A stretch of 64,000 bases of DNA, taken from positions 20-64,019 of the forward strand of contig CALXTY010000001.1 of assembly GCA_944391535.1 (NCBI GenBank), given 5' to 3'. Positions 2,886 through 56,791 of this stretch are shown piece after piece. The position numbers and the translations under genes were made by a program. The notes under the pieces are model-generated. The model searched no databases, was not told the origin of the DNA, and saw nothing but the letters and a program-made list of their open reading frames with translations. The DNA comes from an uncultured Alphaproteobacteria bacterium. GTDB taxonomy: Bacteria; Pseudomonadota; Alphaproteobacteria; CAAGCB01; CAG-977. Numbering within the stretch: the first letter of the stretch is position 1; the number at the start of each line of letters is the position of its first letter.

Positions 2886-2909
2886 CAGCCCGAAAGGGCT
2901 GTTTTTTTA
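2886..2909. terminator. Rho-independent terminator (CAGCCCgaaaGGGCTG + T7), likely bidirectional
   Basis: Perfect 6-bp stem with GAAA loop, followed by TTTTTTT and preceded by AAAAA. Lies at the end of the lysis cassette and the 3' end of the convergent Sel1 gene. Confidence 0.6.
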
Positions 2910-3671
2910 AAAAGATCTTCTTCTTCTGTTGCCGACACGATTCGAATTTTCTTCTTCTTCTTTTTCTTCTTCTTCTTGTGAAAAAAGACGGGAAGAGCGT
3001 TTGTTTTGCTCTTTTTCTTTGCTGGCATTTTTTTCTTCTTTTGCTTTTTGATCTCTGATCAACGCTTCAATCAAAGGATTATCGTAAACATTTTTTTCTT
3101 CGTCTTTGGTTTCGTATTTCGAGATATCAACTCCGAAATCCATATATTGTTGCGCAATTTTATCTTCTAGTTTATCCAATTCCAATTGTTGATGCTGATT
3201 AAACAGATCAATCAAATCCAAAGTGCTTTGAATCATCGGATTAGCTAATGAAATCTCATCCAAATTCATACGGGCTTCCAATCTGTTGCGGAACGGAACC
3301 GCTTTCTGATTCCCTAGTAAAACGGCTGTCTGATACCACTTGTAAGCAAAAATATTGCTTTGACTGACACCGTTTCCTTTTTCGTACAGCTTCCCCAGTT
3401 CCAATTGAGAAGGTGTATGGTTTCTCATCGCAGCAGAAGTAAAACAGTCGGCCGCGGCCATAAAAGCATCTTCGTTAGCGTCGCTTAACAGTAACATACC
3501 GCGTTCGTATAAAGCTTCCGGATCTGTCATTTTTGCGCATACTGCGCTGGCGTTGATATATTTTGCCAAAGTATTTTCCTGTTCCCCTTCAGAAGCTTTG
3601 AAGCTGGTCTGGGCGTAAACAGAACCATTTGCGATAAAAAAAATCAAAAATATCAGAAATGCCTTGAACAC
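2907..3671 (-). CDS. Sel1-repeat (TPR-like) secreted protein with C-terminal poly-Glu tail
   Basis: Signal peptide MFKAFLIFLIFFIANGSVYA. Sel1-type repeats (GxxYxxG..Ax.WYxxAA pattern). C-terminal EEEEKEEEEN is encoded by a (CTT/GAA)n tract at ~2930-2990. Confidence 0.7.
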   Translation of the reverse strand: MFKAFLIFLIFFIANGSVYAQTSFKASEGEQENTLAKYINASAVCAKMTDPEALYERGMLLLSDANEDAFMAAADCFTSAAMRNHTPSQLELGKLYEKGNGVSQSNIFAYKWYQTAVLLGNQKAVPFRNRLEARMNLDEISLANPMIQSTLDLIDLFNQHQQLELDKLEDKIAQQYMDFGVDISKYETKDEEKNVYDNPLIEALIRDQKAKEEKNASKEKEQNKRSSRLFSQEEEEKEEEENSNRVGNRRRRSF

Positions 3672-3740
3672 GAGATCATATCCTTAAATAATAAGTGACA
3701 GTATCATATTTTTATAAAGTTTAAGCTAAATAGGCAAAAA

Positions 3741-5774
3741 ATGAAACGGCTTTTATATTTTTTTTCGTTTTTCTTTTTTTTAATTTTTTTTCAAACTTCT
3801 GTGCAAGCGGCAGTTCAAGCGGATTTGTTACTACAAAAAGAAAATATTTCCGCGGGACAAGAATTTTTTCTTGCGTTGAAGCTGTCTTTACCGTCCGGAG
3901 GACATGTCTATTGGCAAAACCCGGGAGATTCCGGAGAACCGATTGAATTGAAATTAAAGCTGCCGGAAGGATTTCGCGAAATTCAACGTTATTGGCCGGC
4001 TCCTGAAAAATTCACGGTAGGACCGTTCACCGAATACGGTTATAAAAATCAGGCTTATGTCGTGGCGAAAATCAAAGCTTCTGAAAATTTAAAACAAGGT
4101 GAGGTCTTTGTCATTGATGCCAAAGCCACATGGCTGTTTTGCCATAACGAATGCATACCGATGTCTCAGGATTTGTCTGTTTTGGGAATCGGCGGAAAAA
4201 TAAATGAGAGAGAAAACAAGGAAATCAGTCGTGTCATTCAAAATATGCCGAAAGAAAATAAAGAAACGCTCTTTTTTGAAACACCCGATACTTTGATTTT
4301 ATCCCTACCGGCTCATAAAGAGGTAAAAAGTGCTTATTTTTTCTCTAAGAATCTGAAAATTTTGAATTATTCCGCTACGCAAAATTTAAAGGAAGCCGGA
4401 GGAAAATTCTATCTATTCATGAAAAAATCCGATACGATGTCGGCTCAGCCGTTGGATTTGTTGGAAGGAACTCTTGTCCTTTATGATGAACGGCGTGAAC
4501 CGGTATGTTCTTTTGATGTTAAAGCATTGAAAACGGATGAAAATCTTCCTGTTTTTACAGAACCGTTCGTGTGGATCGATTTTTTAACGGCTCTGTTTTT
4601 CGCTTTTTCCGGCGGCGTTTTGTTAAATCTTATGCCGTGTGTTTTTCCGGTGTTGTCATTAAAAGCTTTTCGTTTGTTGAATGCCGCGCGGGATGTTTCC
4701 GTAGCCGATCGGCGTAAGGCGGGGTTAAGCTATACCGCAGGAGTTTTGTTGTCTTTTTGTTGCATCGGTTTAATTCTGATCGCTTTGCGAGCCGCCGGAT
4801 CTGAAATGGGGTGGGGATTCCAATTACAATATCCTCCGTTTGTTTTGGGGTTGTGTTTGTTCCTGTTCTTTTTGGGATTGGTTTTTTCGGATATTGTCAG
4901 CGTTGGCGAAAAATTATCCGCATTCAGTTTGAATGTCGGACGAAACTGGGGGGATTTCGGAACGGGAGTCCTGGCTGTTTTGGTCGCGACCCCTTGTGCC
5001 GCACCGTTTATGGGAACGGCTTTGGGATACGGATTGATGAATCCGGCCGTTGTGACAATGTGTGTCTTTTTTGCAATGGGATCGGGGTTGGCTTTCCCGT
5101 TTTTATTGCTGGATTTCTATCCTGCTTTGGGGCGCTTCTTACCTAAAGCGGGGCCGTGGATGGTGATGTTCAGGCAATTTTTGGCTTTTCCTTTATACGC
5201 CGCCGCCGCTTGGTTGCTTTGGGTCTTGAGCGCTCAAGAGGGAAGTGTGGCATTGGCGGTCGGCTTGAGCTGTGTCGTCGCAGTTTCTTTTGCCGTATGG
5301 TTGGCCGGAGCCGCTCAATCGAAAAACTTAAAAAGAATTTCTGTCTTTGTAACGCTTTTTACGCTCTTTTTAATTATTGTTGGCCTTTATTCTCTTTCTC
5401 CTGTCCGTTTGTCGGAAAAAGAAAAAAACAGGATTGATTGGATTGATTATAATGCCGCAGAAATTCAAGACTACAGACAAGCCGGAGTGCCGGTGTTCAT
5501 TAAATTTTCCGCCAAATGGTGTTTGACTTGTCTGGTCAATGAAAAGACTGTTTTCAGTTCTGAAAAAATCGCAAAAGCCTTTCGTCAAAAAGGCGTTGTC
5601 GCTTTTTCGGCCGACTGGACAAACCGCAGCGATGAAATTACCGCGGCTTTGGAAAGCTTCGGACGAGGGGGAATACCGTTGTATGTGTATTATGCGCCTT
5701 ATTCGAAACAGCCTCGGATTTTGCCTCAACTGGTTACTTCAAAAACGATTTTGTCTTTGGTTGACGGATTGTAA
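3741..5774 (+). CDS. dsbD: Thiol:disulfide interchange protein DsbD
   Basis: 677 aa with a signal peptide, a periplasmic N-domain, a multi-TM core containing conserved Cys residues, and a C-terminal thioredoxin-like domain with WCLTC (CxxC). Confidence 0.8.
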   Translation: MKRLLYFFSFFFFLIFFQTSVQAAVQADLLLQKENISAGQEFFLALKLSLPSGGHVYWQNPGDSGEPIELKLKLPEGFREIQRYWPAPEKFTVGPFTEYGYKNQAYVVAKIKASENLKQGEVFVIDAKATWLFCHNECIPMSQDLSVLGIGGKINERENKEISRVIQNMPKENKETLFFETPDTLILSLPAHKEVKSAYFFSKNLKILNYSATQNLKEAGGKFYLFMKKSDTMSAQPLDLLEGTLVLYDERREPVCSFDVKALKTDENLPVFTEPFVWIDFLTALFFAFSGGVLLNLMPCVFPVLSLKAFRLLNAARDVSVADRRKAGLSYTAGVLLSFCCIGLILIALRAAGSEMGWGFQLQYPPFVLGLCLFLFFLGLVFSDIVSVGEKLSAFSLNVGRNWGDFGTGVLAVLVATPCAAPFMGTALGYGLMNPAVVTMCVFFAMGSGLAFPFLLLDFYPALGRFLPKAGPWMVMFRQFLAFPLYAAAAWLLWVLSAQEGSVALAVGLSCVVAVSFAVWLAGAAQSKNLKRISVFVTLFTLFLIIVGLYSLSPVRLSEKEKNRIDWIDYNAAEIQDYRQAGVPVFIKFSAKWCLTCLVNEKTVFSSEKIAKAFRQKGVVAFSADWTNRSDEITAALESFGRGGIPLYVYYAPYSKQPRILPQLVTSKTILSLVDGL

Positions 5775-5777
5775 AGA

Positions 5778-7235
5778 TTATTTGGGCGGTTTGCCTTTTA
5801 TCGCAACGATTTTTAGACTGTGAGGAAAGATTTTTTTCCCGTCGGGAACCGATTGCGGGACAAAACGAATCACGGCCGTCCCTTCATGGAGAACGGTGAA
5901 TTGTTTGCTCAGCCAGCTTTCTTGACGAGCTGTTTGTGCGGACAGCGGTGTTAAGATAAAAGAGGGATTGGCTCCGAGCAATCCGGACGGATCTTGCAGG
6001 ATGAGGTTATATCCCGTATTTTTAATGTACATATGTCCGCCTTTGCGTGTTGCGTCGTTTTCATATAAAGGCGTATAAACCGATAACCTGATGATGTCTC
6101 CGACCATGACGGGGATAGAGCTGTTTTCTTTTTTTAAAGTCAGATGAATAAATCGTGGATCTGACGGTCTGAAATAAAGCGCCATAATGGCTTCTTGATC
6201 TTCGGGTGTCGGCGCGGGCAGTTTTTTCGTTTCCAGATCTGGGTTTTCTTTTTGTTCGGTATTCATTCCGACCCATGTCGGCATCAATGGGAAAAAGGTT
6301 TTATATTTATTGTCGAAAGCGTCTTTTTTAATAAATTTCATAAAAGGAGTTTCTTCAATCATTTTTTCGGGCGGCAAAGGCAGCGCTTTCGGGATATTAA
6401 ACTGTTTCAGATCTTTTGGAGCCAAGACGGTTTTTAACCAATAAGGTCTGAATTTTTCCAGATAAGCTTTGTGAAAATCGGATAAATTTTTTTGAGATTC
6501 CTCGAACAGGTTTTCAAATCTCAGATAAATTTTTTTATCTTTTTCCCGATTGACGCGATTCATTCCCAGTTCGCTCAATAAGACGGCTTGCAGAAAGTCT
6601 TTTTTATCGGCGTACAATTGTGCCAGATTATAGAAGGCGTAAAGATTGGAGCTTAATACGGCTTGTTTTAAAAGATCTTCGGCTTTTTTTTCATCTTTTT
6701 TGACGCCGATCCCAAATCTGTAATAAACGCCTAATGTATTCATGGCGCCGCTGTGATTGTTTTTGATGGCTTTTTGAAAATAATTTGCGGCGGACGCATA
6801 ATTTCGTTTCACGCCGACACCTTCTTGATAGAGCAGTCCCATTTGAAAAGCGGCATTACGATTATTTGAATCGGCTTGATATTTCAAATGATGAACATAC
6901 ATTGCGCCAGAAAATCCGCTGATTTTTTCTTTAAAACGATCAAGTATGCCGATTTTATCAAGAGCGGACAAATCGCCTTTTTCAAGGTCTTTTAAAAATG
7001 CGGCGTAAGGAATGGTTTTATTTTGCTCTTTTTTCATGATTAACTCGCAGACGCGAACGACATATGCGGCGCTGGGTTGTTCTTTTTCATATTTTTTCAT
7101 GATGCGCAAAGCTTCATTGCAATTTCCCGCATTGAAGGCTTCCACGCCGACGTCGAAAGAGTCTCGATCAACGGTTTGAGCCTGAAGTCCCGTTAAGTCG
7201 GAGAAGAAAAAAAGAGAAAGAAGAAAAAAAATCAT
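5778..7235 (-). CDS. Sel1-repeat protein (EnhC/LpnE-like), secreted
   Basis: Signal peptide, then multiple Sel1 repeats (AxxYFQKAIKNNHSGAMNTLGVYY, etc.). Confidence 0.7.
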   Translation of the reverse strand: MIFFLLSLFFFSDLTGLQAQTVDRDSFDVGVEAFNAGNCNEALRIMKKYEKEQPSAAYVVRVCELIMKKEQNKTIPYAAFLKDLEKGDLSALDKIGILDRFKEKISGFSGAMYVHHLKYQADSNNRNAAFQMGLLYQEGVGVKRNYASAANYFQKAIKNNHSGAMNTLGVYYRFGIGVKKDEKKAEDLLKQAVLSSNLYAFYNLAQLYADKKDFLQAVLLSELGMNRVNREKDKKIYLRFENLFEESQKNLSDFHKAYLEKFRPYWLKTVLAPKDLKQFNIPKALPLPPEKMIEETPFMKFIKKDAFDNKYKTFFPLMPTWVGMNTEQKENPDLETKKLPAPTPEDQEAIMALYFRPSDPRFIHLTLKKENSSIPVMVGDIIRLSVYTPLYENDATRKGGHMYIKNTGYNLILQDPSGLLGANPSFILTPLSAQTARQESWLSKQFTVLHEGTAVIRFVPQSVPDGKKIFPHSLKIVAIKGKPPK

Positions 7236-7951
7236 TATTTTGCTTTTTTAATCGGTTCTGAAGAACGGTTTAGGAAAATATTTTCAAATTTTTTTTGTTG
7301 ATCGATACTTTTTTCCCATCGTTTGGCGGTATGAATATTTTCTGAAATATTTCCGGAACCGTTTTTATAAATAACGGCAAGAGCCATTTTTGCGTTAATA
7401 TCGCCTTGTCTGGCCGCTTTTTGATAAAAGTAAACGGCTTTTTTCATGTTTTTTTCGACATATTCTCCGTTTTCATACCAACGAGCCAACATGATTTGCG
7501 CTTCAGCATCTCCGTTTTCTGCCGCTTTTTGAGCATATTGCAGTCCTTTTTCAAAATCTTGAAGCACATTTTCTCCGTTTATATAAATCAAAGCCATGGT
7601 CATTTGCGCCGGCGCATAGCCTGCATCCGCTGCTTTTTCGTAATAGTCCAAAGCTTTTGTAATATTAACGGGCATTCCTTTTCCCGTAAAATTCATGGCT
7701 CCCAAGGCGAAGGCCGCTTCGGGAAGATTCAGCAGATCGGCTTGAGCAAAATAAACCGACGCTTTTTGATAATCGCCTTTTTCATAATAGCTTAAAGCCC
7801 TGTTTAGCGGATTATAGGAAAAGTTCTTAGGTTGTCGGTTGAGGAAAAAAAAGAAGGTGATTAAACATAAAACGCCGATAAAAATTAAAGCCTTGTAAAG
7901 AGAAATCCGTTCTTTTTTCTGCATTATTGTTTTCCTTTTTCGGACTTTCAC
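7235..7951 (-). CDS. Sel1-repeat protein with N-terminal membrane anchor
   Basis: Contains ALGAMNFTGKG, YYEKAADAGYAPAQ and WYENGEYVEKNMKKAVYFYQKAA Sel1 repeats. Stop/start abuts the upstream Sel1 gene. Confidence 0.7.
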   Translation of the reverse strand: MKVRKRKTIMQKKERISLYKALIFIGVLCLITFFFFLNRQPKNFSYNPLNRALSYYEKGDYQKASVYFAQADLLNLPEAAFALGAMNFTGKGMPVNITKALDYYEKAADAGYAPAQMTMALIYINGENVLQDFEKGLQYAQKAAENGDAEAQIMLARWYENGEYVEKNMKKAVYFYQKAARQGDINAKMALAVIYKNGSGNISENIHTAKRWEKSIDQQKKFENIFLNRSSEPIKKAK

Positions 7952-8053: not shown

Positions 8054-9448
8054 ATGTCTTTTTTGTGTCGCGAGCAAATAAAGTCGTTTCATTTCACACG
8101 TTGTTTTTTTGATGAAGAAACTAAAACGGCTCATTTGTTGTACGCGTTTAACGACGGGGCGATAGAGTTTGAAGAAAAAATCCGCTTTTGTGAAGCCCCT
8201 TCAATTCCGGATCCCGCCAGACGTCAGGTTTTGGAAATATGTTTGCGTTTGCTTCATTTGGCCGCCGGTGTCAGTTACTACAAATTATTTGTTCCTGATG
8301 AAATTAAGGTTGATTGCACACGTTTGTCAAAACGGGAGGCGGATTTTTTTAATTTGTTTTATACGGCGGGTTTGGGAGAATTTTCTTACAGAAACAATGT
8401 GGCTTTGAATATCCGTTTTCCCTTTGATGCCGACCGCACGGACGATTCGGTCGCATCAATAACATTGAAAAAGCGGATTGTTGTTCCCGTGGGCGGCGGA
8501 AAAGATTCGATCGTTTCGATAGAGGCTTTGAAATCATCAAGCTTTTCTCCGATTTTATTTTCCGTTGGTTTGCCGCGACCGATTAAAGAAACAATAGAGA
8601 TATCAGGATTGCCGTCAATTTTGGTTCAACGTCATTTATCCGATCAGCTTATAAAAATCAATGAATGCTCGAATAAATATCATGCATTAAACGGCCATGT
8701 CCCGGTCACGGGGATCATTGCGTTTATTTTAATGGTCGCCGCCGTTTTATATGACTTTTCTGCTGCGGCTTTGTCAAATGAACGTTCGGCAAATGTCGGG
8801 AATACGGAAAAAGACGGTCGCGCGATTAATCATCAATGGAGTAAATCTTTGGAATTTGAACGGGCGTTTGACAGTCTGAAATCTTTGATTCTTCCGGAAT
8901 TTCATTATTTTTCACTTTTGCGTCCGCTGTCTGAATTGACGATAGCTTCTTTATTCGCCAAGACAAAAAAATATGATTTCGTTTTTACCAGTTGTAATAA
9001 GGCTTTTAAACTTGATGAAAATAAAAGGTTGGATCGTTGGTGCGCGAATTGTGATAAATGTCGTTTCGTTTTTTTGGCTTTGGCTCCTTTTATGGACAAG
9101 GAAAAGTTGATTCGCATTTTCGGGCGCAATATGCTAAATGATCTCTCACAGCTTCAGGGATACAAAGAGCTGTTGGGCTTGTCGGCCTTTAAGCCTTTTG
9201 AGTGCGTCGGAGAGATTGAAGAATCTGTATTGGCTTTTTTAATGTTGTCGGACAGTCCGCAATGGCGTGATGAAGCTGTTATCAAGACATTGTCAAACGA
9301 CGTTTACCTGCATTATAAGGAAAAAAAAACAGAGTTTATGAAAAGAATTTTTTCGTCATCGTCTGATCACTTGATACCGGAGGAATACGCTAATGTTATT
9401 GGAAACTTTAAAAAACAGACCTGTCACAGTGTGGGGGAACGGTATTGA
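8054..9448 (+). CDS. PP-loop ATP-pyrophosphatase-family protein; candidate UDP-MurNAc-L-Ala-L-Glu epimerase (MurL-like)
   Basis: SGGxDS-type PP-loop (VPVGGGKDS) and C-terminal CxxC(D)KC cysteines. GGAGA RBS lies 5 nt before the ATG at 8054 (the ORF track starts at 8000). The 3' end overlaps a murD located outside a dcw cluster. The MurL assignment is an inference. Confidence 0.45.
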   Translation: MSFLCREQIKSFHFTRCFFDEETKTAHLLYAFNDGAIEFEEKIRFCEAPSIPDPARRQVLEICLRLLHLAAGVSYYKLFVPDEIKVDCTRLSKREADFFNLFYTAGLGEFSYRNNVALNIRFPFDADRTDDSVASITLKKRIVVPVGGGKDSIVSIEALKSSSFSPILFSVGLPRPIKETIEISGLPSILVQRHLSDQLIKINECSNKYHALNGHVPVTGIIAFILMVAAVLYDFSAAALSNERSANVGNTEKDGRAINHQWSKSLEFERAFDSLKSLILPEFHYFSLLRPLSELTIASLFAKTKKYDFVFTSCNKAFKLDENKRLDRWCANCDKCRFVFLALAPFMDKEKLIRIFGRNMLNDLSQLQGYKELLGLSAFKPFECVGEIEESVLAFLMLSDSPQWRDEAVIKTLSNDVYLHYKEKKTEFMKRIFSSSSDHLIPEEYANVIGNFKKQTCHSVGERY

Positions 9449-10670
9449 AGGCCGTGCGGTAACAATTTTTTTGGAAAAACGCAATTGCACGGTAAATGTT
9501 GTGGAAGATCCCGTATCCATCCCTTTTTCCGGCGTTATTGTTAAATCGCCTGGGATCAGTTTGTACCGTCAAGAAATCAAGATGGCAAAACAATACGGAG
9601 CTATTTTTACTTCCGCGACGAATTTATTTCTGGAAGCCGCTCTTTTGCAACCGGAATACAGACCGTTTTTGATCGGCGTGACAGGAACGAAAGGCAAATC
9701 GACGACGTCTTCTTTGATTGCTCATTTGTTAAAAGCGCAGGGACATCGCGTTGCTTTGTGCGGCAATATCGGCGATCCGTCGATTTCTTATGCCGAAGAC
9801 TTGGATAAATATGATATTTTTGTCGTTGAAATGTCCAGTTATCAATGTGCGGATTTGCAATATTCATTTGATATTTCGGTTATTTTGAATTTATATCCGG
9901 AACATATTGATTGGCATAAGACTCATGAACAATATTTTCATGACAAATTAAATATTTTGGCGCATCGCAAACCGGAACAAGGTGTCATATTGAATGCGCA
10001 AGATCCTTTAACGGCGATTTATGTTAAAAAACCGGAAAATGCCGTTTATTTTGACGCATTAAATGCGATACATATCATGGGGGACTATTTTTATGACGGA
10101 ACGAAAAAATTATTTAAAACGGATATCGTTCCGTTACGCGGGGAACATAATTTGAAAAATGTTTGTGCGGCGCTGACTGCTGTTGAACAAGTCAGCGGTT
10201 CATTGATCGGCTGTGAAGAAGCGTTAAAGACGTTTCAAGCCTTACCGCATCGGTTGCAAACGGTGGCTGTTAAAAACGGCGTGACATATGTGGACGACAG
10301 TATTTCAACGACGCCGGAAACGGCGATTGCCGCTTTAAAATCGTTTGGTTATTCCAATGTTGTATTAATAGCCGGCGGTTATGACAGAGAACAAGATTAT
10401 CAAGAGTTGGCCTCTTTTGTTGCTCGAGGAGGCGCTTCGGCTGTTGTTGCTTTGCCTCAGACGGGGCATCGTTTGGCGGAAAGCATTTCGGACAAGGGCG
10501 GAAAAAGCGTTATGGCGATAAATATGAAAGATGCGGTTCAGAAAGCGGCATCTTTGGCTCATTTCGGCGGTGTGGTTCTTCTTTCTCCCGCGGCGCCGAG
10601 TTATGGCACGTACAAGGATTTTCAAGAGCGCGGAGAAGATTTTTTAAGATGTGTCAACGAGTTGGAATAG
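9393..10670 (+). CDS. murD: UDP-N-acetylmuramoylalanine--glutamate ligase (MurD family; possibly the L-Glu-adding MurD2 type)
   Basis: N-terminal Rossmann GNGIEGRA, Mur ligase P-loop GVTGTKGKSTT, and C-terminal domain. Neighbours are not mraY/ftsW. Confidence 0.8.
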   Translation: MLLETLKNRPVTVWGNGIEGRAVTIFLEKRNCTVNVVEDPVSIPFSGVIVKSPGISLYRQEIKMAKQYGAIFTSATNLFLEAALLQPEYRPFLIGVTGTKGKSTTSSLIAHLLKAQGHRVALCGNIGDPSISYAEDLDKYDIFVVEMSSYQCADLQYSFDISVILNLYPEHIDWHKTHEQYFHDKLNILAHRKPEQGVILNAQDPLTAIYVKKPENAVYFDALNAIHIMGDYFYDGTKKLFKTDIVPLRGEHNLKNVCAALTAVEQVSGSLIGCEEALKTFQALPHRLQTVAVKNGVTYVDDSISTTPETAIAALKSFGYSNVVLIAGGYDREQDYQELASFVARGGASAVVALPQTGHRLAESISDKGGKSVMAINMKDAVQKAASLAHFGGVVLLSPAAPSYGTYKDFQERGEDFLRCVNELE

Positions 10671-10675: not shown

Positions 10676-11263
10676 TTACCGTCTTGCTTTTAAAGCGGTT
10701 TGGATCGTTCCGTCGTCCAGATAATCCAATTCTCCGCCCACGGGAATGCCCTGAGCCAGTGAAGAAATTTTAACGGGCAGTTTTTTAAATCGTTCAATAA
10801 TGTAATGTCCGGTCGTCTGTCCGTCGACGGTGGCGGGCAAAGCCAAAATGATTTCCGAAACTTCCTGTTGCCTGATTCTGTTTTCCAGTACAGGCAGGCG
10901 CAATTCGTCGGGGCCGATGCCTTCTATGGCGGACAGCAATCCGCCCAGAACGTGATATTTTCCTTTAAAAGCCGCGCTACGCTCGATCGCCCATAGATCG
11001 GCGACGTCCTGAACGACGCAGAGAACGGTTTTATCTCGGCGTTGATCTTGGCAAATATGACAAGGGGAGCAAGAATCCAAATTTCCGCAAACAGGGCAGG
11101 TTCGGATATGTTCAATAACGTTCTGAATGCTTTGTGCCAAAGGAACAAGAAGACTTTCCTTTTTTTTAATCAAATGCAGAACGACACGTCTCGCCGATCT
11201 TTTTCCAAATCCCGGCAATCGAGCAAACAGACGGATTAACGACTCCAGTTCCGTTTCAGTCAT
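10676..11263 (-). CDS. recR: Recombination protein RecR
   Basis: C4 zinc finger CPVCGNLDSCSPCHIC, a Toprim domain, and the conserved dnaX-ybaB-recR order. Confidence 0.9.
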   Translation of the reverse strand: MTETELESLIRLFARLPGFGKRSARRVVLHLIKKKESLLVPLAQSIQNVIEHIRTCPVCGNLDSCSPCHICQDQRRDKTVLCVVQDVADLWAIERSAAFKGKYHVLGGLLSAIEGIGPDELRLPVLENRIRQQEVSEIILALPATVDGQTTGHYIIERFKKLPVKISSLAQGIPVGGELDYLDDGTIQTALKARR

Positions 11264-13313: not shown

Positions 13314-13605
13314 CTTTTTTCGGGAGCGGCGTTAAAATAAAAAAGGAAATCGGACAGCGACCCGCATTGAACCGTTACGGCTGCTTTCTTCCGAACCTGA
13401 CCGGGTTGGCGGCCAAGACGTCCGCGCCGATTTCCGATTTCTATTTATGAGTATTTTTGTTTTAAGTGCAAGCAGAACTTTTTTTATTTTGGAAAATAGG
13501 TTAAAAAAGTCTTATTTTCCGCCGTTTTTTGATCAATGCTTGACAAAAGTCTATTTTGTGTTTTTTCTGTTTGGCACTTAATTTGTTTTTCCAGGAGTAC
13601 GCTTT

Positions 13606-17054: not shown

Positions 17055-18311
17055 ATGCCTGCCGGCTGGAAGTTTTTTTTCAGATTATTTGTGCTGGTGG
17101 CGCTTTGTCTGTGCGGCGGCAGTGTATTCAGCTTTTATTCTTTGCTTTACGAGCAAAACGGTGTTGAGGAATCAACGGTTGTTTTGGTTGAGAAGGGTGA
17201 AAGTTTAAATCAGATCGCCCGTCGTTTGAAAGAAAACGATTTATTAAGCAGTATTGCCGTGTTTAAAGTCGCGGCAAGACTTTCAGGAAAATCTACGCGT
17301 TTAAGAGCCGGAGAATATCGTATTCCGGCTCATGCAAGCGCTAAAGAGATTTTGGATATTTTGGTTTCCGGTCAAACGGTCGTGCGTCGTGTCACCATTC
17401 CCGAAGGAAAAACCAGCCGACAAATTTTTGATTTATTGTTACAGACGCCCGGTCTTTATGGCGATTTGCCGTCTCCGCCCCCTCCGAACGGCGCTTTATT
17501 GCCGGAAACATACGTGTTCAGTTACGGTCTGCCGCGCACGATTATTTTGGAACGTATGTTAGGGGGAATGCAAAAAACGATTGAAGAATTATGGCCTTTA
17601 CGGGATCCGGATTTGCCGTATACGACGAAGGAAGAAGCTTTGGTGTTGGCTTCGATTGTTGAAAAAGAGACTTCCGTTCCCGAAGAACGCGCCAGAATAG
17701 CGGGCGTTTTCGTTAATCGTTTAAGGAAGGGAATGCGGTTGCAGACTGATCCGACGGTGATTTATGCGGTCACGAACGGAACGATGGAACTGAAACGTCG
17801 TTTGACGCATAAGGATTTAAGAACGGATCATCCTTTTAACACTTATATGAACAAAGGACTGCCGCCGGCTCCGATTTGCAATCCCGGACGCGAATCGATT
17901 TTGGCGGTATTGCGACCGCAAAAGACGAACGAGATTTATTTCGTGGCGGACGGGACGGGCGGTCACGTTTTTTCAAAAACGTTTGAAGAACATAAACGCA
18001 ATATAGCCAATTGGAAGCGGGCGAGACGTAAAAAACGAACGGCTGCCGTAAAGAAAAAACCGACAGTTCAAAAAACGGTGAAAAAGCCTCAAGCGCAAAA
18101 GACACCGACAAAGAAGACTGTGGCAAAACCGGCGCAATTCGCTCCTGCCGTTGCCGAAACGGCGGAGGAAATAAAGAAAAAAGAGATTTTGGATCAACAG
18201 GATTTGTCATTGGATATTGTCGATGACGCTTTAATCGAAGCGACAAGCGAAAAACCCGTAGATCCGGCGAAAACGCAGACAGGATCGGCGCAGGCGGAAG
18301 GAACGAAATGA
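17055..18311 (+). CDS. mltG: Endolytic murein transglycosylase MltG (YceG) with an atypical C-terminal Lys/Pro/Thr-rich extension
   Basis: N-terminal TM and a YceG-like domain (ETYVFSYG, VTNGTMELKRRLTHKDL). Conserved position after fabF. Roughly 100 extra low-complexity residues at the C-terminus. Confidence 0.75.
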   Translation: MPAGWKFFFRLFVLVALCLCGGSVFSFYSLLYEQNGVEESTVVLVEKGESLNQIARRLKENDLLSSIAVFKVAARLSGKSTRLRAGEYRIPAHASAKEILDILVSGQTVVRRVTIPEGKTSRQIFDLLLQTPGLYGDLPSPPPPNGALLPETYVFSYGLPRTIILERMLGGMQKTIEELWPLRDPDLPYTTKEEALVLASIVEKETSVPEERARIAGVFVNRLRKGMRLQTDPTVIYAVTNGTMELKRRLTHKDLRTDHPFNTYMNKGLPPAPICNPGRESILAVLRPQKTNEIYFVADGTGGHVFSKTFEEHKRNIANWKRARRKKRTAAVKKKPTVQKTVKKPQAQKTPTKKTVAKPAQFAPAVAETAEEIKKKEILDQQDLSLDIVDDALIEATSEKPVDPAKTQTGSAQAEGTK

Positions 18312-19051
18312 AGATTTTATTTCTTTTTGCCATTCTTTTTTGCACACAGGCCTTTGCTTCATTGGAAGCCGGACAAAAAGCCTTTATTCAAGGCGATTAT
18401 AACAAGGCGTTCGAACAATGGCGTCAAGCGGCGGAACAAGGGGATTTAACGGCGCAACGCAACATTGCGCATTTATACCGTTGGGGAAAAGGTGTTCCTC
18501 AAGATTTAATGCAGGCGGCTTTTTGGTATTATACGGCGGCAAAGGGCGGATTGGATACGGCTCAATATAATTTGGGCGTGATGTATTTGCGCGGGGAAGG
18601 CGTTCCCAGAAACGAAGAAGAAGGCATCATTTGGTTGGAACGCGCGGCGGAACAGAACAATGAAAAAGCAAAGAAAAAGTTGGCTCATTTAAAAATCGAA
18701 ATTGATCACGAACTGCCGACGGAAGAAGATTTGCTTAAACCCGTAAAGCATAAACCTCAGCCGTCTTCAAAAAGTCCGTCAATAAAAGTGATGACGGTCA
18801 GTCGAAAAGAACCGCCTTTATACGCTCATTTGGCGTCTTATTATACTCAGGAAACCTTGGAAAAGGGGTGGGAAGAATTAAAGCAGACTTTCCCCGAGCT
18901 TTCAAAATTCAAGACTCTTGAAACGCAGGTGACGTTGCCCGAAAAAGGGAAATACATCCGTTTGTATATCAAGGGGAAACCTGAAGAGATCAAACAAGTT
19001 TGCAGTCTGTTAAATGCGAAGAAACAATATTGCCTGATCAGCTATCCGTAG
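18308..19051 (+). CDS. Secreted Sel1-repeat protein with C-terminal SPOR-like domain
   Basis: Signal peptide, Sel1 repeats (NIAHLYRWGKG, YNLGVMYLRGEGV), and a C-terminal ~80 aa resembling a SPOR fold. Start overlaps the mltG stop (ATGA). Confidence 0.55.
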   Translation: MKILFLFAILFCTQAFASLEAGQKAFIQGDYNKAFEQWRQAAEQGDLTAQRNIAHLYRWGKGVPQDLMQAAFWYYTAAKGGLDTAQYNLGVMYLRGEGVPRNEEEGIIWLERAAEQNNEKAKKKLAHLKIEIDHELPTEEDLLKPVKHKPQPSSKSPSIKVMTVSRKEPPLYAHLASYYTQETLEKGWEELKQTFPELSKFKTLETQVTLPEKGKYIRLYIKGKPEEIKQVCSLLNAKKQYCLISYP

Positions 19052-36859: not shown

Positions 36860-37930
36860 TTAGAAAGTTGATTTTTCAAGGGTTACGGTCGTATCCAATC
36901 GTAATAACAGGTCGGTCAGACGTCTCAGGAAATCACCTCTGAGAACACGCAGAGGGACTTCTTTTCCCTGTTTGCTTTGGAAACTGATTTTATCCGGAGA
37001 TTTAATAAAGTTTGCAATCGTTTGCGCGATATCGGCGTTTCTTTGCCTGTGCGCATTGGAAAAAGACAGGTAAGAGACTATTTTTTGAATGCCTTTATTA
37101 CTCAATTCGGCGGGGCTGGGGGTATTGGGTTGACGCAAGTAAAGCGTGTCGATGTATTTTTTATATCCTTGCACCAAAGCTTTTTCCGTATAGGCAAAAG
37201 ACAAAGACGAAACGGAAGCGCCGTCTAAGAAGTTTTTCAAATCCGTCAACGAATTTCCTTTTTGAACCAAGTGTTTAAAGGCTAACAACAGCTGTCCCTG
37301 CTGCGCGTTGGAAATGTTTTCAAAAGTGATTGAGCCGCCCCAATGCCCCAGACATTTATCATCAATATCGGCTTTCAGGATCATTTTTTTAGCTTGCGGG
37401 TAATACGTATATTCTCCTTTAACGTTGGCGGATACATGATTGCATCCGGCCAATAACAAAGCATACAGAGGATTATCAATCAAATCTTGGGCAGGATTGA
37501 AAAAGGCTAAGGTATCAATAACGTTTTCATCCGATTTTTTTAACAGCCGTGCGATATCGATCAGGCGGAAAGAAACGTTTTTTGCACTAAAAGACAATTT
37601 TGTGGCGATATGATTTGTTTCTTTATAGTGGTGAACGACGAAGGTTTTTATAGTATTTTTTAAAGCGGGCAAGTCATTTAAACGAACTGACACATCTTTT
37701 AAGACGGCAAGATCGGAAACGGATAGATCCAAATTTTGATAAGAGATGGCGTTGCTTAGTTTATTGCGGTTTAAAAAGTTATGGATATTTTTTTGTTCTT
37801 CGTCTTTTTGCAAGAAGACCATGAAAACACCGCAAGCCGTAAACAGCAGAAGCAGAATCGTTACGGCGACCCACATACTTTTTGTCATGAATCGTTCTCC
37901 TGTCTGTACGGGGCGTGATAAGGCATCCAA
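36860..37930 (-). CDS. Hypothetical membrane-anchored periplasmic protein
   Basis: N-terminal TM and no known motifs. Overlaps the upstream unknown gene by 46 nt (operon). Confidence 0.4.
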   Translation of the reverse strand: MDALSRPVQTGERFMTKSMWVAVTILLLLFTACGVFMVFLQKDEEQKNIHNFLNRNKLSNAISYQNLDLSVSDLAVLKDVSVRLNDLPALKNTIKTFVVHHYKETNHIATKLSFSAKNVSFRLIDIARLLKKSDENVIDTLAFFNPAQDLIDNPLYALLLAGCNHVSANVKGEYTYYPQAKKMILKADIDDKCLGHWGGSITFENISNAQQGQLLLAFKHLVQKGNSLTDLKNFLDGASVSSLSFAYTEKALVQGYKKYIDTLYLRQPNTPSPAELSNKGIQKIVSYLSFSNAHRQRNADIAQTIANFIKSPDKISFQSKQGKEVPLRVLRGDFLRRLTDLLLRLDTTVTLEKSTF

Positions 37931-39588
37931 TTGGGTTTTTCATGTCTTTTGCGGATCAAACCGATCAAGTCGGCGACTTCGGCACAAGCTTCCTGTTCAC
38001 ACGCGGCGGCGGAAGACAATTCCAGAACACCTTCGGCGAAAGGAGCCGTTTTTTTGTGTTGTTTTTTTTCTTCCGACGTCATCAAACGCAGTCTGCCGCT
38101 GACAATATGCCATCCCGTCCGGTTTAACAAACCGCTGGTTTGCGTGATCAGGAATTCCGACGGCCATTGAGCCCATGCTTTATCCAGTCCTAAAGAAGCG
38201 ACATTTACCAACATATTTACCCTGATGGGTTTTTGTGTGATTGCCGTGGCTGTCAACATTGCGGGCAGGTTATCGATTTTGTCGACGCCGATCATATAAG
38301 CCAGTCTTCCCAAGTAATCGGATTTTGTCAATTCATTATAATCGGCCATCATCAGCTGATGTTCGCGTAAATCTTCGGCTCGTCTGGCATTTTCCCGCAA
38401 GCGTGCCAGATTTTGAGTTTTATCGGAAACGATGGTCCATTTTCCCCCCGGTTTTCGTTCCAGAACAGCGGCATAAATTAATTTTTCTTCCGCACTTTCC
38501 GTATCGGTATTTTTTGTTTCCGGCAGATCCATTCCCGGTATGCCCTGAGGAACGGTTGTCGCAAAGAATTTCATTTGTCTGGCGCCGAGGCAGAAGATAT
38601 CTGCAAAGCTTTCCGCCGTTCTCAGAATGTTATCGGTGACGGTATTTTCCAAAAACAGCTCTTCGTTTTCCGTTACGGCGGCAATTGTGAAAGGCGCGCA
38701 CCCCGACCATGGAGAGTAGCCCCCGTTTTTTTTGTTACGTTGACTTTTTAAGAAACCCAGATAGTGAATTTTTAATTCTGGATCCGAATCGATCAGGTAG
38801 CTGAGGATTTGATTGTTTTTATCTGCGCCGTAACGGTTCAGCAGGACAAGGTTGAGATTTTTTCGACCGGTAAAGCGTCCTTCCGTGAAATAGCCGTCAA
38901 GAGTTGTTTCCAGATGTCCCTTTTCATTAAAAACGGAGACTTCCGCACGTCCATAGATCAGGTTTTCCGAACAAGAATTGCTGCCGACGCTAATGAACCA
39001 GTTTTTAACGTTATCGGCTGTTTTATCGGTTGTATAAAGAATGGAGCAACTTTTATCTTTGGAATAAATTCTGTGTTCCAGAGCCGTTTGCGGATCAATA
39101 TGTGCGACAATTTTTTGTTTTCCCGCCGGCGGAGCCCATTCTTTGACGGGGAAACCGTCTTTGGATCGAGCGGTATTGACGGCGGCGGCTTGTAATTGTC
39201 GGATTTTTACTTTGAGCGTGCCTTTTTCCGGTTTCCAGTTGTCTGTTGCCGAAGCCGATCCCTGATAGACCAAAGTGTTTGCGCTGTATCCGTCAATTAG
39301 TGCTTGCAAGGCGGAAGGGCATTTGTTGTTTAAAACCAATGCGACTTTTGTCATTAAAGCATTCAATGCTTTTTCTTTGAACGCGGATTCTTCTTGCGCG
39401 AAGATTTTTAAATTTAATATGTCGTCGCACCATTGCCCTGAATTGGCTTCGGCGAATACTTCGACGCCTTCTTTTTCGGAATAGGCGATTCTTTTCATTT
39501 CATGTCCAGTTTGTATGTCAAGCGTTTGAGCGCTTGCCCGAATTGTCATGAAAAAAAATAAAGTCGCTGTTTTAAAAAAACTGTTCAT
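37885..39588 (-). CDS. Hypothetical secreted protein (567 aa)
   Basis: Signal peptide MNSFFKTATLFFFMTIRASAQ. No recognisable domains. Confidence 0.4.
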   Translation of the reverse strand: MNSFFKTATLFFFMTIRASAQTLDIQTGHEMKRIAYSEKEGVEVFAEANSGQWCDDILNLKIFAQEESAFKEKALNALMTKVALVLNNKCPSALQALIDGYSANTLVYQGSASATDNWKPEKGTLKVKIRQLQAAAVNTARSKDGFPVKEWAPPAGKQKIVAHIDPQTALEHRIYSKDKSCSILYTTDKTADNVKNWFISVGSNSCSENLIYGRAEVSVFNEKGHLETTLDGYFTEGRFTGRKNLNLVLLNRYGADKNNQILSYLIDSDPELKIHYLGFLKSQRNKKNGGYSPWSGCAPFTIAAVTENEELFLENTVTDNILRTAESFADIFCLGARQMKFFATTVPQGIPGMDLPETKNTDTESAEEKLIYAAVLERKPGGKWTIVSDKTQNLARLRENARRAEDLREHQLMMADYNELTKSDYLGRLAYMIGVDKIDNLPAMLTATAITQKPIRVNMLVNVASLGLDKAWAQWPSEFLITQTSGLLNRTGWHIVSGRLRLMTSEEKKQHKKTAPFAEGVLELSSAAACEQEACAEVADLIGLIRKRHEKPNWMPYHAPYRQENDS

Positions 39589-39649
39589 GTCGGCAACTAT
39601 AAAATATAATTGACAAAAATGACAGTATTAAAACGAAAAGGAAGAAAAA

Positions 39650-40651
39650 TTGATCGTTCCGGATAAAAAAACAGCAACATACCTCAACGAACCGGTTACT
39701 CCGAAAGGGGTTTTGCGTTTATGTCGGGCGGGTGTGGTGTCTGCATTTGACTTTTTAAAAGCGGCGGCATTGTGCCGGTCAGATAAAAAATGGAGCAAAT
39801 TTATTGTTTTGATACTGCGTTTTTTATCAGGACTGAGCTTTTTGTCGGCAATCTTTTTTTTCACCATATCTCAATGGGACTTTTTTTATCGGACAAGCGG
39901 TTTCACTCTTTTGTGCGTTTTGTTTGTTTTGTGCGCATGGTTTCGCGACCGTTTCGGAGCTGCCGATTATGTCGGTGCCGGTTTGATCGGATTTATGATT
40001 TTTTTGCCGGATGTTGTTTTTAGAACCAACGTGTTTTTGTATGAACAGTTTTTTTTATGGTTTGTTTTGTTGGTTGTCTGGTCTTGTTTTGCAAGACAAT
40101 GCGGTCTTTGGCTGTTGAGCTTTTTTGTTCTCAACGTTGCAATTCTTTTATACGGCGTCCAATTTGTCGTGCCTTCTTTTATTTTCAGTTTGTCTGAATT
40201 TTGTCTTTGGTCGGCGCTTTTTAATTTGAGCTGTTTGATCGTACTGGAAAAAGTCTCGGAAAAAAGACCGGATCTCATTTTGAAAGGATTTCGTTTTTTT
40301 CCTCTGTTATGGGCTTTTTCGCTTTTGCTTTTGGGGTGCGTTTCTCAATGTGTCGCGTCGGGAAAAATCAGTTTTTCAGATAGTTGTTTTTTGTTGTGTT
40401 TGTTGTCCTCAGTATTTTGCGGATATGTTTATCGCGTGCGCATACCGGACAGGCGGGTTCAACGATTGGTCTTATTGTTCGGAGCCATATGTCTTGTTTG
40501 TTTGTGCTATCGTTTCATTTATTTTTTTATTTTTGCACCTCGTTTGCAAAACACCTTGTTTTCCTTTGTTTTTTCGGGGATTGTGGGCGGCGCTTTGATC
40601 TGGGAGCGTTTGTCTGCTCTTCAAGTGAAAGGATATGAAAATGTCGACTGA
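39650..40651 (+). CDS. Polytopic membrane protein, DUF2157-like
   Basis: Soluble N-terminal ~55 aa followed by ~8 Phe/Leu-rich TM helices. First gene of a 3-gene operon ending in a GDYXXLXY protein. Confidence 0.4.
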   Translation: MIVPDKKTATYLNEPVTPKGVLRLCRAGVVSAFDFLKAAALCRSDKKWSKFIVLILRFLSGLSFLSAIFFFTISQWDFFYRTSGFTLLCVLFVLCAWFRDRFGAADYVGAGLIGFMIFLPDVVFRTNVFLYEQFFLWFVLLVVWSCFARQCGLWLLSFFVLNVAILLYGVQFVVPSFIFSLSEFCLWSALFNLSCLIVLEKVSEKRPDLILKGFRFFPLLWAFSLLLLGCVSQCVASGKISFSDSCFLLCLLSSVFCGYVYRVRIPDRRVQRLVLLFGAICLVCLCYRFIYFFIFAPRLQNTLFSFVFSGIVGGALIWERLSALQVKGYENVD

Positions 40652-41663
40652 TTTTTCTTTGCGACAATTGTTGGCGTGCCTCAACATTTCTGTTTTTGAT
40701 CCGTTGGTCGAACCTTCCTTAAAAAAAGCGTGTCAAATTGACGCCGAACAAAAAGCGGAAAAGAAAAATCCGTTTCACAGCGTTTTTTCATTAATTGTTT
40801 TGCAAATCGCCGCGTTGTTATGTTTTTACGGTTTTCGTTCGCATTCTTTTTCTGCCGGATTGTTTTTTGTTTTGTTTGGCGGAATGTTTTTATACAAGAC
40901 GACTTCTCAGGGATATCATTATTTTTTTAAAATTTATTTTTTAGCCGGTTTGCTGTTGTGGGGAGAAAAACTTTTTTTGTTTTCCCCTTTTTTGGTTGCG
41001 GTTTTGCTTTTGTTTTTTTTGTTGCGCAATCTGACCAATCCCAAAGCCAGAGATAACAGGGTTTTGTCTGCATTGTGGTTTTTTGGCGTTGTCGTTTGGA
41101 CAGTTTTTTTATTTTATCCGGAATTTTTTTCTTGGACGCTTTGTTTTTTTTCTTTATTGGGTGTTTTAGGACTGTTGTTTCCGTTGAAAAACATTTATTT
41201 TCGAGAAGCGTCCGTCATTTTTTCAGTTATGCCCCTTTTTTTATTATTGGTCAGCGAGTTATTTTGTTTAGAGCAAAAAACGTTTTTTTGTTCAAGGAAC
41301 GAATTTCTGATCGCATTTACGTTTTTCGCCGAGTTTTTTTTGCTGTTCTTTTGTCTTCGAACAGACCTTGAAACGAATGAGACGTTTTCATTTCTGTTTG
41401 CTGATTTTTTGTTGTTTTTGACAGGATTGTTTTTGTCGAACGGGTTGAGTGGAACAATTACTTTGTTTACGATCGCCTTTTTTACCGATGCTCGTGATTT
41501 GGGACGTTCGGCGATAATTTTATTTTCGTGTTTTTTGCTGACTTTCTTTTTATCTTTGCCTCTGTCTTTTCTGACGGCGGGGTGGGTTTGTTCTTTTTCG
41601 GGGCTTGTTTTTGCTTTGTTTTATATTCGCTTAAAACGTTTTTGTCTGCAGGAGAATAAGTGA
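40635..41663 (+). CDS. Polytopic membrane protein, DUF4401-like
   Basis: ~10 TM helices. Overlaps its neighbours by 17 nt and 4 nt (translational coupling). Confidence 0.4.
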   Translation: MKMSTDFSLRQLLACLNISVFDPLVEPSLKKACQIDAEQKAEKKNPFHSVFSLIVLQIAALLCFYGFRSHSFSAGLFFVLFGGMFLYKTTSQGYHYFFKIYFLAGLLLWGEKLFLFSPFLVAVLLLFFLLRNLTNPKARDNRVLSALWFFGVVVWTVFLFYPEFFSWTLCFFSLLGVLGLLFPLKNIYFREASVIFSVMPLFLLLVSELFCLEQKTFFCSRNEFLIAFTFFAEFFLLFFCLRTDLETNETFSFLFADFLLFLTGLFLSNGLSGTITLFTIAFFTDARDLGRSAIILFSCFLLTFFLSLPLSFLTAGWVCSFSGLVFALFYIRLKRFCLQENK

Positions 41664-42214
41664 TGCGTCGTTTTGTCGTCTTGTTTTGTCCTGTGCTTGT
41701 TTTGGTCGTTTTGATCGGTCGATATGTTTCTGATTCTCGATTGTATCATTCGCAAACGATTCTTTTATTGCCGGTATCCGTCTTGCAAATGGGGCAAGAT
41801 ACTTTTTCTTCATATGTTCGATTGCGATATGACAATTTTATTCCGGTTCGCGATTTGTCCGATAAAAAAGGCGTCATTGTCGTGGACAGATTAAACGACG
41901 GTCGCGTTGTTTTTGTCAGCGTTGCATCGGATCGTCCGTTGCGCCCTAGAGAAGTGTTATTAAAATATGAGATTGTTCCCTCTTTATCTTTTGACGATCA
42001 AAAGAAAGAAGCGAACATTCGTTTTGCTTCGGATTTTTTTCGTTTTATCAAAAAGAAAAAACGACACCTTTCAGCCGTTCGATATGCTGTTGTACACGTA
42101 GACGATGCGGGCAATACCGTTTTGACCGGATTGGCGGACGGTAACGGAATTTTATTGGTTAAGGGGTTGAGGGGGGCTTTTTTTGACAGTCATCGAAATT
42201 CACCCAGAAAATAA
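41660..42214 (+). CDS. GDYXXLXY-domain protein (184 aa, N-terminal TM)
   Basis: Size and topology match the family. The motif SYVRLRYDNF corresponds to GDYxxLxYDi. Confidence 0.5.
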   Translation: MMRRFVVLFCPVLVLVVLIGRYVSDSRLYHSQTILLLPVSVLQMGQDTFSSYVRLRYDNFIPVRDLSDKKGVIVVDRLNDGRVVFVSVASDRPLRPREVLLKYEIVPSLSFDDQKKEANIRFASDFFRFIKKKKRHLSAVRYAVVHVDDAGNTVLTGLADGNGILLVKGLRGAFFDSHRNSPRK

Positions 42215-44021: not shown

Positions 44022-44622
44022 TCGTTTCAGAGGGTTCATAGACGGAACTGAAAGGATAATGTTTCGCGCATCTGGGCTCATAGATGTCGGCGGCGCCCAG
44101 TTCAATATCGGATTTTGATCCGCTGCATTTATAAGTGAAGATGGCATCTTCATTGCAAATGGCGCATCGTGCGTGCAAGGGGATGCATCTGTCGGCGATT
44201 TTTTTCAGTTTTGCGATAATTTCGAAAGGCTCTCCTTTCCAGTTCATATCAAGTCCGCAACAAACGACATTCAGTCCCCGATCAATCAACGTTTGGATGC
44301 AGGCGATGATGTCTCCGCCGAAGTAAGGTTCCGTAAAGAACTGGATTTCATCAAAAAAGACAGCCTGAGCTTTTTCAATGGCGTCCGATGAAAGAATCTC
44401 GTCCGTGTTTGTCAAATTGAACGCTTCTGCGGCGACGCCGTCATGTGTTTTGATTTCACAGATACCGTATCTGGTATCGAAAGACGGCTTGATCAGCATC
44501 ATTTCTCCGTCAAACGATCGGGCTTTTTTTAACAATGCGGATGTTTTTCCTGCGAACATAGGGCCGGTGATGACTTCGAGCGAACCTTTCGGCATATTTT
44601 TGTTTCCAATTATTGACGACAC
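43981..44622 (-). CDS. tdk: Thymidine kinase
   Basis: P-loop GPMFAGKTS, FFDEIQFF, and a C-terminal Zn ribbon (CxxC...CxxH). Confidence 0.85.
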   Translation of the reverse strand: MSSIIGNKNMPKGSLEVITGPMFAGKTSALLKKARSFDGEMMLIKPSFDTRYGICEIKTHDGVAAEAFNLTNTDEILSSDAIEKAQAVFFDEIQFFTEPYFGGDIIACIQTLIDRGLNVVCCGLDMNWKGEPFEIIAKLKKIADRCIPLHARCAICNEDAIFTYKCSGSKSDIELGAADIYEPRCAKHYPFSSVYEPSETNDVDTRQGDLFDF

Positions 44623-56400: not shown

Positions 56401-56476
<76 letters not shown>

Positions 56477-56483
56477 TAAAAAC

Positions 56484-56507
56484 CGCAGGAAACTGCGGAT
56501 TTTTTAT
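56484..56507 (+). terminator. Terminator hairpin after tRNA-Ala (CCGCAGgaaaCTGCGG + T6)
   Basis: 6-bp stem with GAAA loop, followed by ATTTTTTAT. Confidence 0.55.
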
Positions 56508-56625
56508 GCCTAAAAGAAAATGGTTAATTTTTAAGTTTTGCATTTTTTGACTATTTTTTGACCGTTTTGACACCTGAAAACATCTTCTTTGACAATCGAG
56601 AACCGTAAAAATTCTTTTGCGCGGG

Positions 56626-56785
56626 TAATTTCGGAAATTTCGATTTTAACAAAAGCAATCTGTCGTCCTTCTTACGGAATTTCGGTAATAAGGGAAACGA
56701 TAAACCTCTTTTCTTATTTTATCGGCGATTCTTGTGAAAGAGCTATCTTCGGTATTTTCGGGAAAACTCGGAAATCTCGTTTCAG
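56626..56785. repeat. Four copies of a TCGGnAATTTCG-like motif between tRNA-Ala and the HU gene
   Basis: The four copies are tcggaaatttcga, cggaatttcgg, tcggtattttcgg and tcggaaatctcg. They are spaced irregularly within 160 bp. Confidence 0.25.
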
Positions 56786-56791
56786 GCATAA

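Follow-up and report, generated by a model that had tools for sequence, protein, structure and literature searches.

How would a bacterium furnish its peptidoglycan with D-glutamate if its murD gene stood apart from the division and cell wall (dcw) genes and were overlapped at its start by a gene for a PP-loop protein? The question arises at positions 8054–10670 of a 64,000-nucleotide (nt) stretch, hereafter the window, from an uncultured alphaproteobacterium (contig CALXTY010000001.1, positions 20 to 64,019; assembly GCA_944391535.1), where two open reading frames (ORFs), ORF1 and ORF2, share their junction. A first-pass annotation had read them as a candidate pair of the alternative peptidoglycan pathway in which the ligase MurD2 uses L-glutamate and the epimerase MurL inverts it. 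That reading is supported by matches to the MurL models of NCBIfam and Pfam, by the specificity residues of the ligase and by the conserved linkage of the two genes. We consider it highly probable that 8054–10670 is a translationally coupled murL–murD2 operon providing this alternative route to peptidoglycan D-Glu. The support presented here consists of homology, specificity residues, linkage and predicted fold; both reactions are taken from the published biochemistry of orthologues.

Identity of the two proteins

ORF1 matched a single NCBIfam model at E ≤ 0.01. This model, NF041275, represents MurL, the UDP-N-acetyl-alpha-D-muramoyl-L-alanyl-L-glutamate epimerase, and the alignment runs from end to end (residues 6–448 on model positions 4–442 of 447; E = 2.3e-138, 461.5 bits). 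The exact ORF1 protein also has precomputed Pfam assignments to MurL_N (PF26299) and MurL_epimerase_C (PF26298). A Pfam scan of ORF1 with a copy of the database that lacks the MurL models gave nothing at E ≤ 0.01 or even at E ≤ 10, and is a false negative. The protein therefore aligns with MurL and not with the tRNA-modifying or amidotransferase families that the first-pass annotation had named as the alternative. Assignments of ORF1 as a tRNA-thiolase, QueC or asparagine-synthetase type were rejected in favor of the full-length MurL match.

Over about 440 residues, ORF1 is 39–42% identical to MurL of Stenotrophomonas, Pseudoxanthomonas and Micromonosporaceae (residues 1–442 in the comparison with Stenotrophomonas and Pseudoxanthomonas). 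Wherever a column is invariant across 55 homologues or across 79 genome-derived MurL sequences, ORF1 has the conserved residue, and all family-invariant motifs are present: GGGKDS, NGH, SxExSA, NHQxSK, SCN, WCxxCxKC and PFECVGE. Since NHQxSK and PFECVGE served as retrieval patterns, their invariance in the 79-sequence set is partly circular; the other motifs are independent of retrieval. Both features singled out by the first-pass annotation, the PP-loop motif VPVGGGKDS and a Cys cluster, were located in the sequence (Table 1). Gly147 to Asp151 and the four clustered cysteines (Cys314, Cys330, Cys333, Cys336) are invariant in all 79 sequences, and Ser152 in 78 of them.

ORF2 passes the NCBIfam equivalog for the D-Glu ligase MurD, TIGR01087 (307 bits against a cut-off of 212), and an annotation pipeline would therefore name it a D-glutamate ligase. 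Its Pfam domains are Mur_ligase_M and Mur_ligase_C, while MurD-like_N barely matches because about 28 residues of the N-domain are missing. The catalytic residues Lys102, Asn125, Glu146, His171 and Lys185 are intact and align to Lys115, Asn138, Glu157, His183 and Lys198 of E. coli MurD. To place the specificity positions, we aligned 74 MurL-linked ligases to the E. coli enzyme, the numbering of which was verified against known active-site residues.

Passages of PMC8788868 set four residues of Xanthomonas oryzae MurD2 against their E. coli MurD counterparts (Glu197/Asp182, Arg358/Lys348, Pro433/Ala414 and Phe435/Leu416), and report that an E197D/R358K double mutant of MurD2 was turned fully into a D-Glu ligase and that E. 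coli MurD carrying K319T accepts L-Glu. At each position covered by this mutagenesis work, ORF2 has the residue of the L-Glu type, which settles in favor of MurD2 the residue comparison that the first-pass annotation had proposed. The other MurL-linked ligases agree: Glu and Arg each occur in 73 of 74 sequences and the Glu/Arg pair in 73, Pro in 72, Phe in 42, Tyr in 31, and Ile at the Lys319 position in 73. The Tyr of ORF2 is shared with these 31 ligases, one of them from Stenotrophomonas. Canonical MurDs read D/K/A/L/K at the five positions in E. coli and Pseudomonas aeruginosa, and T/R/A/W/K in Streptococcus agalactiae. By these experimentally defined specificity residues, ORF2 is a MurD2 as judged from its sequence, and its assignment as a canonical D-Glu MurD was rejected.

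The reference pair is MurL (XOO_1319) and MurD2 (XOO_1320) of X. oryzae, with orthologues in Stenotrophomonas (SmltD), Micromonospora and Salinispora (Feng et al., 2017, as related in passages of PMC8788868 and PMC5808125). Like that pair, the window locus is a two-gene unit in the order murL, murD2, in which both proteins are homologous over their full length, the MurL motifs are invariant, the ligase has the L-Glu residues (Glu, Arg, Pro, an aromatic) and has lost the Lys equivalent to E. coli Lys319, and murD lies outside the dcw cluster, as it does in Proteobacteria. It differs in sequence (39–42% identity to the Xanthomonadales pair for MurL, about 35–39% for MurD2), in a MurL score below the Xanthomonadales equivalog cut-off, in the ligase N-domain shortened by about 28 residues, in an overlap of 56 nt rather than the usual 14–26 nt, and in its host, an uncultured alphaproteobacterium with gut and rumen relatives that is known here from sequence. 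With canonical MurD (E. coli b0088; PDB 1UAG, 2UAG) and the glutamate racemase MurI, the window ligase shares the three-domain Mur-ligase fold and the catalytic residues, and the end product would be identical once MurL has acted. Whereas canonical MurD has Asp182, Lys348, Ala414, Leu416 and Lys319, takes free D-Glu from MurI and is encoded between mraY and ftsW, the window ligase has Glu, Arg, Pro, Tyr and Ile at these positions, is coupled to an epimerase and adjoins recR.

Predicted fold of MurL and the proposed route

What kind of enzyme might MurL be? Reviews of 2018 and 2021 describe it as lacking any known domain, and a PDB sequence search with ORF1 gave no match, so that the copy of the PDB searched contains no sequence-detectable MurL relative with a solved structure. 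An AlphaFold2 model built from the 55-sequence alignment was confident, with a predicted local distance difference test (pLDDT) of 92.8 and a predicted template-modeling score (pTM) of 0.93. In a Foldseek comparison with the PDB, the best matches of this model were without exception PP-loop ATP pyrophosphatases: QatC, QueC, TtuA, Cap9, MnmA and argininosuccinate synthase (ArgG). QatC was matched with E = 1.6e-6, and the TM-score normalised by target was 0.59–0.60 for QueC (2PG3, 3BL5) and 0.64 for Cap9. In the model, GGGKDS (147–152) follows a strand at 142–145 and precedes a helix at 150–161. With the MurL profile, VPVGGGKDS falls on SGGKDS, the PP-loop of TtuA, at a weak E of 0.011; the first loop residue is Gly in MurL instead of Ser. 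Together with the fold matches, this supports the PP-loop named in the first-pass annotation. From the model, we infer that the core of MurL is a QueC-like PP-loop ATP pyrophosphatase domain.

QueC-family enzymes adenylate carboxylates, and a QueC-like fold would for this reason give a structural basis for AMP formation by MurL. The invariant Cx15CxxCxxC of MurL resembles the zinc site of QueC and may be its counterpart. More broadly, the predicted MurL core matches QueC, QatC (9Y02), Cap9 (9NTO) and TtuA at a Foldseek probability of 1.00 (TM-scores normalised by target span 0.59–0.64 for QueC and Cap9). Its Gly-rich xGGxDS loop occupies the equivalent position, its C-terminal Cys-x(n)-Cys-x2-Cys-x2-Cys cluster may be a further common element, and the chemistry proposed for MurL would, like theirs, start with carboxylate adenylation and AMP release. 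In contrast to these enzymes, MurL shows no significant sequence similarity past the loop, begins that loop with Gly, not Ser, carries additional N-terminal (about 135 residues) and C-terminal helical (about 110 residues) domains, and would end in stereo-inversion and hydrolysis, not in an amide, nitrile or thio-product. Literature searches for MurL together with the PP-loop gave nothing relevant; one candidate was rejected since the term it contained was 'Mur_ligase' in an abbreviation list. A PADLOC scan of ORF1 returned nothing and gives no sequence-level tie to QatC-type defence systems.

ATP- and Mg-dependent one-way L-to-D epimerisation with AMP release is described, in passages of PMC8788868 and PMC5808125, for the MurL of X. 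oryzae, Micromonospora and Salinispora only, and the same passages give a requirement of one ATP and a yield of AMP. By analogy with these orthologues, the window MurD2 would join L-glutamate, and not D-glutamate, to UDP-MurNAc-L-Ala at the cost of ATP through the usual acyl-phosphate mechanism of Mur ligases. MurL would then irreversibly turn the terminal L-Glu into D-Glu, converting one ATP to AMP. The resulting D-Glu product would be the normal substrate of MurE, so neither MurI nor a D-amino-acid aminotransferase would be needed.

Within MurL, the GGGKDS loop (Gly147–Ser152) is the predicted site of ATP binding and pyrophosphate release, and through it the enzyme may adenylate the alpha-carboxylate of Glu and so acidify the C-alpha proton. 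Cys314, Cys330, Cys333 and Cys336 could hold a structural metal, and the FECVGE segment (Cys384, Glu383, Glu387) may supply the acid and base for inversion before the adenylate is hydrolysed. We regard it as likely, with somewhat less assurance than the operon assignment, that MurL is a QueC-like PP-loop, carboxylate-adenylating enzyme with a Cys4 metal site and a Cys/Glu base, and that the route is not confined to a few genera.

Linkage, distribution and competing explanations

Are the two genes kept together elsewhere? Among the best 80 GTDB species genomes retrieved with the MurL alignment, out of at least 598, a murD homologue lies immediately downstream of murL on the same strand in 76. 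Two of the remaining four loci end too early to judge. By the start assignments made in this analysis, the genes overlap in 57 of the 76 pairs: the closest relative (L005) has an identical 56-nt overlap, and 56 further loci overlap by 1 to 26 nt. Plantactinospora (L043) encodes MurL with no murD within 6 kb, and in a metagenome-assembled genome (MAG) labelled Dichelobacter nodosus (L026) the 6 kb downstream of the MurL gene contain no murD. In a Micromonosporaceae MAG (L051, 8–4543), the sole locus of the 76 with dcw neighbours, murL–murD2 sits between mraY-like and ftsW-like matches on the opposite strand. The L051 and L043 layouts thus indicate that actinobacterial arrangements differ from the proteobacterial one.

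Screening of 1.84 billion representative proteins brought up polypeptides of about 830–914 amino acids (aa), of which those examined are MurL–MurD fusions (P0131, P0134 and P0187; 839–914 aa) and one fusion in the reverse order, MurD–MurL (P0256; 878 aa). A frameshift artefact in overlapping genes could account for some MurL–MurD fusions, but not for one in the reverse order. Two MurL proteins (P0223, P0184) carry uncharacterised N-terminal extensions of 110–190 aa.

The exact ORF1 and ORF2 proteins occur in metagenome assemblies only. Among the species-genome matches listed, the nearest genomes are MAGs named Alphaproteobacteria bacterium (L005–L014), with MurL identities of 45–71% and the best match in L005 (71%); the names of their records suggest human gut, horse faeces, rabbit and rumen as sources. 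A contig binned as the Firmicute Holdemanella biformis (L009) carries a murL–murD2 pair 45–50% identical to that of the window, ranks among the alphaproteobacterial MAG loci and is probably a binning contaminant. The pair had already been reported from Alphaproteobacteria (Devosia, Pelagibacterium, Parvularcula), Xanthomonadales and rare actinomycetes, according to passages of PMC8788868. The different lineage envisaged by the first-pass annotation therefore holds as far as this uncultured alphaproteobacterial clade is added, but Alphaproteobacteria as such were known carriers, and the family already has curated models in NCBIfam and Pfam. The window pair is a further case of the known MurL/MurD2 system, not a new type of system.

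Reviews place MurL/MurD2 in 'relatively few genera'. We found MurL in at least 598 species-level genomes and, among clustered proteins, in more than 8,000 clusters at 90% identity; at 50% identity there are 2,673 clusters with E ≤ 1e-3, and 1,167 of them reach E ≤ 1e-30. Among the taxa named in the record titles are Sericytochromatia, Solirubrobacterales, Acetobacteraceae, Stellaceae and Emcibacter. Literature searches for newer papers on MurD2/MurL distribution gave nothing relevant. Homologues in public records (P0012, P0061, P0079, P0063) are named 'endonuclease domain-containing protein', 'hypothetical protein' or '7-cyano-7-deazaguanine synthase' (QueC), and only P0104, a record of the Joint Genome Institute (JGI), uses the name MurL.

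Several observations weigh against a murL–murD2 operon with QueC-like MurL chemistry. The score of ORF1 falls short of the NF041275 equivalog cut-off of 700 bits, so orthology rests on full-length homology and context and not on a curated threshold. This cut-off was built for and tuned to Xanthomonadales, and since MurL–MurD fusions of other lineages, which bear a MurD domain, likewise score just 385–503 bits, we read it as order-specific and not as family-defining. The N-terminal UDP-binding domain of ORF2 is about 28 residues shorter than in the E. coli and Xanthomonadales enzymes; the domain lies at 9393–9600 of the window, and its missing stretch corresponds to about residues 38–65 of E. 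coli MurD and is likewise absent in L005, L008 and partly L010. The PP-loop relation is drawn from a structure prediction and from a weak profile match, and single-sequence Pfam and PADLOC scans of ORF1 gave no QueC-type match. The enzyme assays concern orthologues from other clades, and the functions in this clade are assigned by homology. Finally, the evidence on the pathway covers 64 kb, and murI, an aminotransferase or a second canonical murD may lie beyond it.

The last of these points favors the most credible competitor, a genuine MurL–MurD2 pair that is redundant or auxiliary in a genome with its own murI or D-amino-acid aminotransferase gene and perhaps also a canonical murD in the dcw cluster. 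We judge this unlikely. According to passages of PMC8788868 the published carriers have no D-Glu-forming gene, the MurL-adjacent murD lies outside a dcw context in 75 of 76 loci (L051 being the exception), as would fit a sole murD, and an L-Glu-specialised ligase would be pointless unless its product were epimerised and used. Less credible is an ordinary D-Glu MurD that happens to lie outside dcw beside an unrelated PP-loop protein engaged in QueC-like deazapurine chemistry, tRNA thiolation or amidotransfer. The TIGR01087 score, the structural neighbours of ORF1 (QueC, QatC, TtuA) and the QueC label on a homologue in one JGI record would all suit such an arrangement; it is contradicted by the full-length MurL match with no other NCBIfam family at E ≤ 0.01, by E/R/P/Y/I in place of D/K/A/L/K, and by the gene order, overlaps and fusions that bind the two proteins together across phyla. 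We give slightly less weight still to a diverged function, in which MurL of this clade acts on another glutamyl or peptidyl substrate, or MurD2 adds another amino acid to give a non-canonical stem peptide. Identity of only 39–42% to the characterised MurL lineages, the NF041275 score under its cut-off and the shortened ligase N-domain point that way, and yet the family-invariant residues of both proteins are all retained and the determinants of the Glu site equal those of characterised MurD2 exactly, save for Phe to Tyr at one position. The murL–murD2 operon remains by far the best account of the locus.

The locus, its surroundings and what the pair means

The positions of the two genes and their overlap, as given by the first-pass annotation, agree with the ORF list and with independent gene callers, which report the same two genes and the same starts on four public contigs with identical protein (Table 1). 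The upstream protein is present as described; its length is 464 aa, the 465 given earlier being the codons with the stop included. The genes are read in different frames over their shared 56 nt (9393–9448). The flanks reported earlier, Sel1 genes on one side and recR–ybaB–dnaX on the other, are likewise found in the ORFs and in the public-contig annotation. When the 64-kb window was searched by tblastn with MurI and 15 E. coli dcw proteins as queries, this murD was the only match and neither murI nor another dcw gene turned up, in accord with the earlier placement of murD outside a dcw cluster, and Pfam labels over about 58 kb of the window include no Asp_Glu_race or aminotransferase class IV gene. 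A promoter and terminator scan around murL–murD2 gave signals no better than in shuffled sequence.

Table 1. Coordinates of the murL–murD2 locus and adjoining features in the window; ligase residues are listed with their E. coli MurD and X. oryzae MurD2 equivalents.
Feature	Position	Strand	Description	Source
Two Sel1-repeat genes	5778–7951	-	Upstream of murL	
murL Shine-Dalgarno sequence, GGAG	6 nt 5' of ATG at 8054	+		Direct sequence reading
ORF1, murL	8054–9448	+	464 aa (465 codons including stop)	ORF list
PP-loop-like motif, VPVGGGKDS	8483–8509	+	Residues 144–152; core G147–S152	
Cys cluster, C314-x15-C330-x2-C333-x2-C336	8993–9061	+	Putative structural metal (Zn) site, QueC type	
KPFECVGE motif (E383, C384, E387)	9191–9214	+	Invariant; candidate acid/base site for epimerisation	
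Translational-coupling junction	9379–9448	+	murD2 ribosome-binding site and start codon inside murL 3' end	
murD2 ribosome-binding site, GGAGG (strong)	9379–9383, 9 nt 5' of ATG at 9393	+		Direct sequence reading
ORF2, murD2	9393–10670	+	425 aa	ORF list
E170	9900–9902	+	E. coli D182; X. oryzae E197	
I304	10302–10304	+	E. coli K319	
R332	10386–10388	+	E. coli K348; X. oryzae R358	
P402	within 10596–10604	+	E. coli A414; X. oryzae P433	
Y404	within 10596–10604	+	E. coli L416; X. oryzae F435	
recR	10676–11263	-	Convergent, 5 nt 3' of murD2; then ybaB and dnaX (also -)	
Bacterial small signal recognition particle RNA	13339–13438	-	Immediately upstream of dnaX	

Other parts of the window hold features of separate interest. 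Four Sel1-repeat proteins are encoded within 16 kb (2907–7951 and 18308–19051), with one on each side of a gene for a DsbD-like thiol:disulfide interchange protein (3741–5774). Phage-type genes lie just upstream of this Sel1/DsbD block, at 1–2350 of the window and 1–4720 of L001 (Phage_capsid_2, with Phage_lysozyme at 1889–2347), and may be a prophage remnant or a cluster resembling a gene transfer agent. Six consecutive ORFs at 36860–44153, of about 180–610 aa, have no Pfam match or a weak one (DUF2157). After a tRNA gene at 56401–56473, the G+C content falls to 0.31–0.37 (against about 0.44 elsewhere) in a stretch that contains an HU-like gene and an ArdC-N/MPTase-PolyVal gene; the region 56401–64000 looks like a mobile element integrated at the tRNA gene.

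The assignment of the pair corrects automatic annotation, in which the ligase passes the murD equivalog and MurL homologues are inconsistently labelled, and it places a racemase-independent route to D-Glu in an uncultured alphaproteobacterial clade near gut and rumen MAGs. The predicted QueC-like fold, together with the fully conserved Cys and Glu residues, provides concrete mutagenesis targets for the mechanism of MurL, and, if correct, a QueC-like PP-loop MurL would give a one-way epimerase that consumes ATP its first structural explanation. The MurL/MurD2 pathway appears far more widespread than reviews state, which bears on proposals for MurD2 and MurL as narrow-spectrum drug targets against Xanthomonas and Stenotrophomonas. 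If this wide distribution is real, it would make MurL/MurD2 inhibitors less convincing as narrow-spectrum drugs specific to pathogens.

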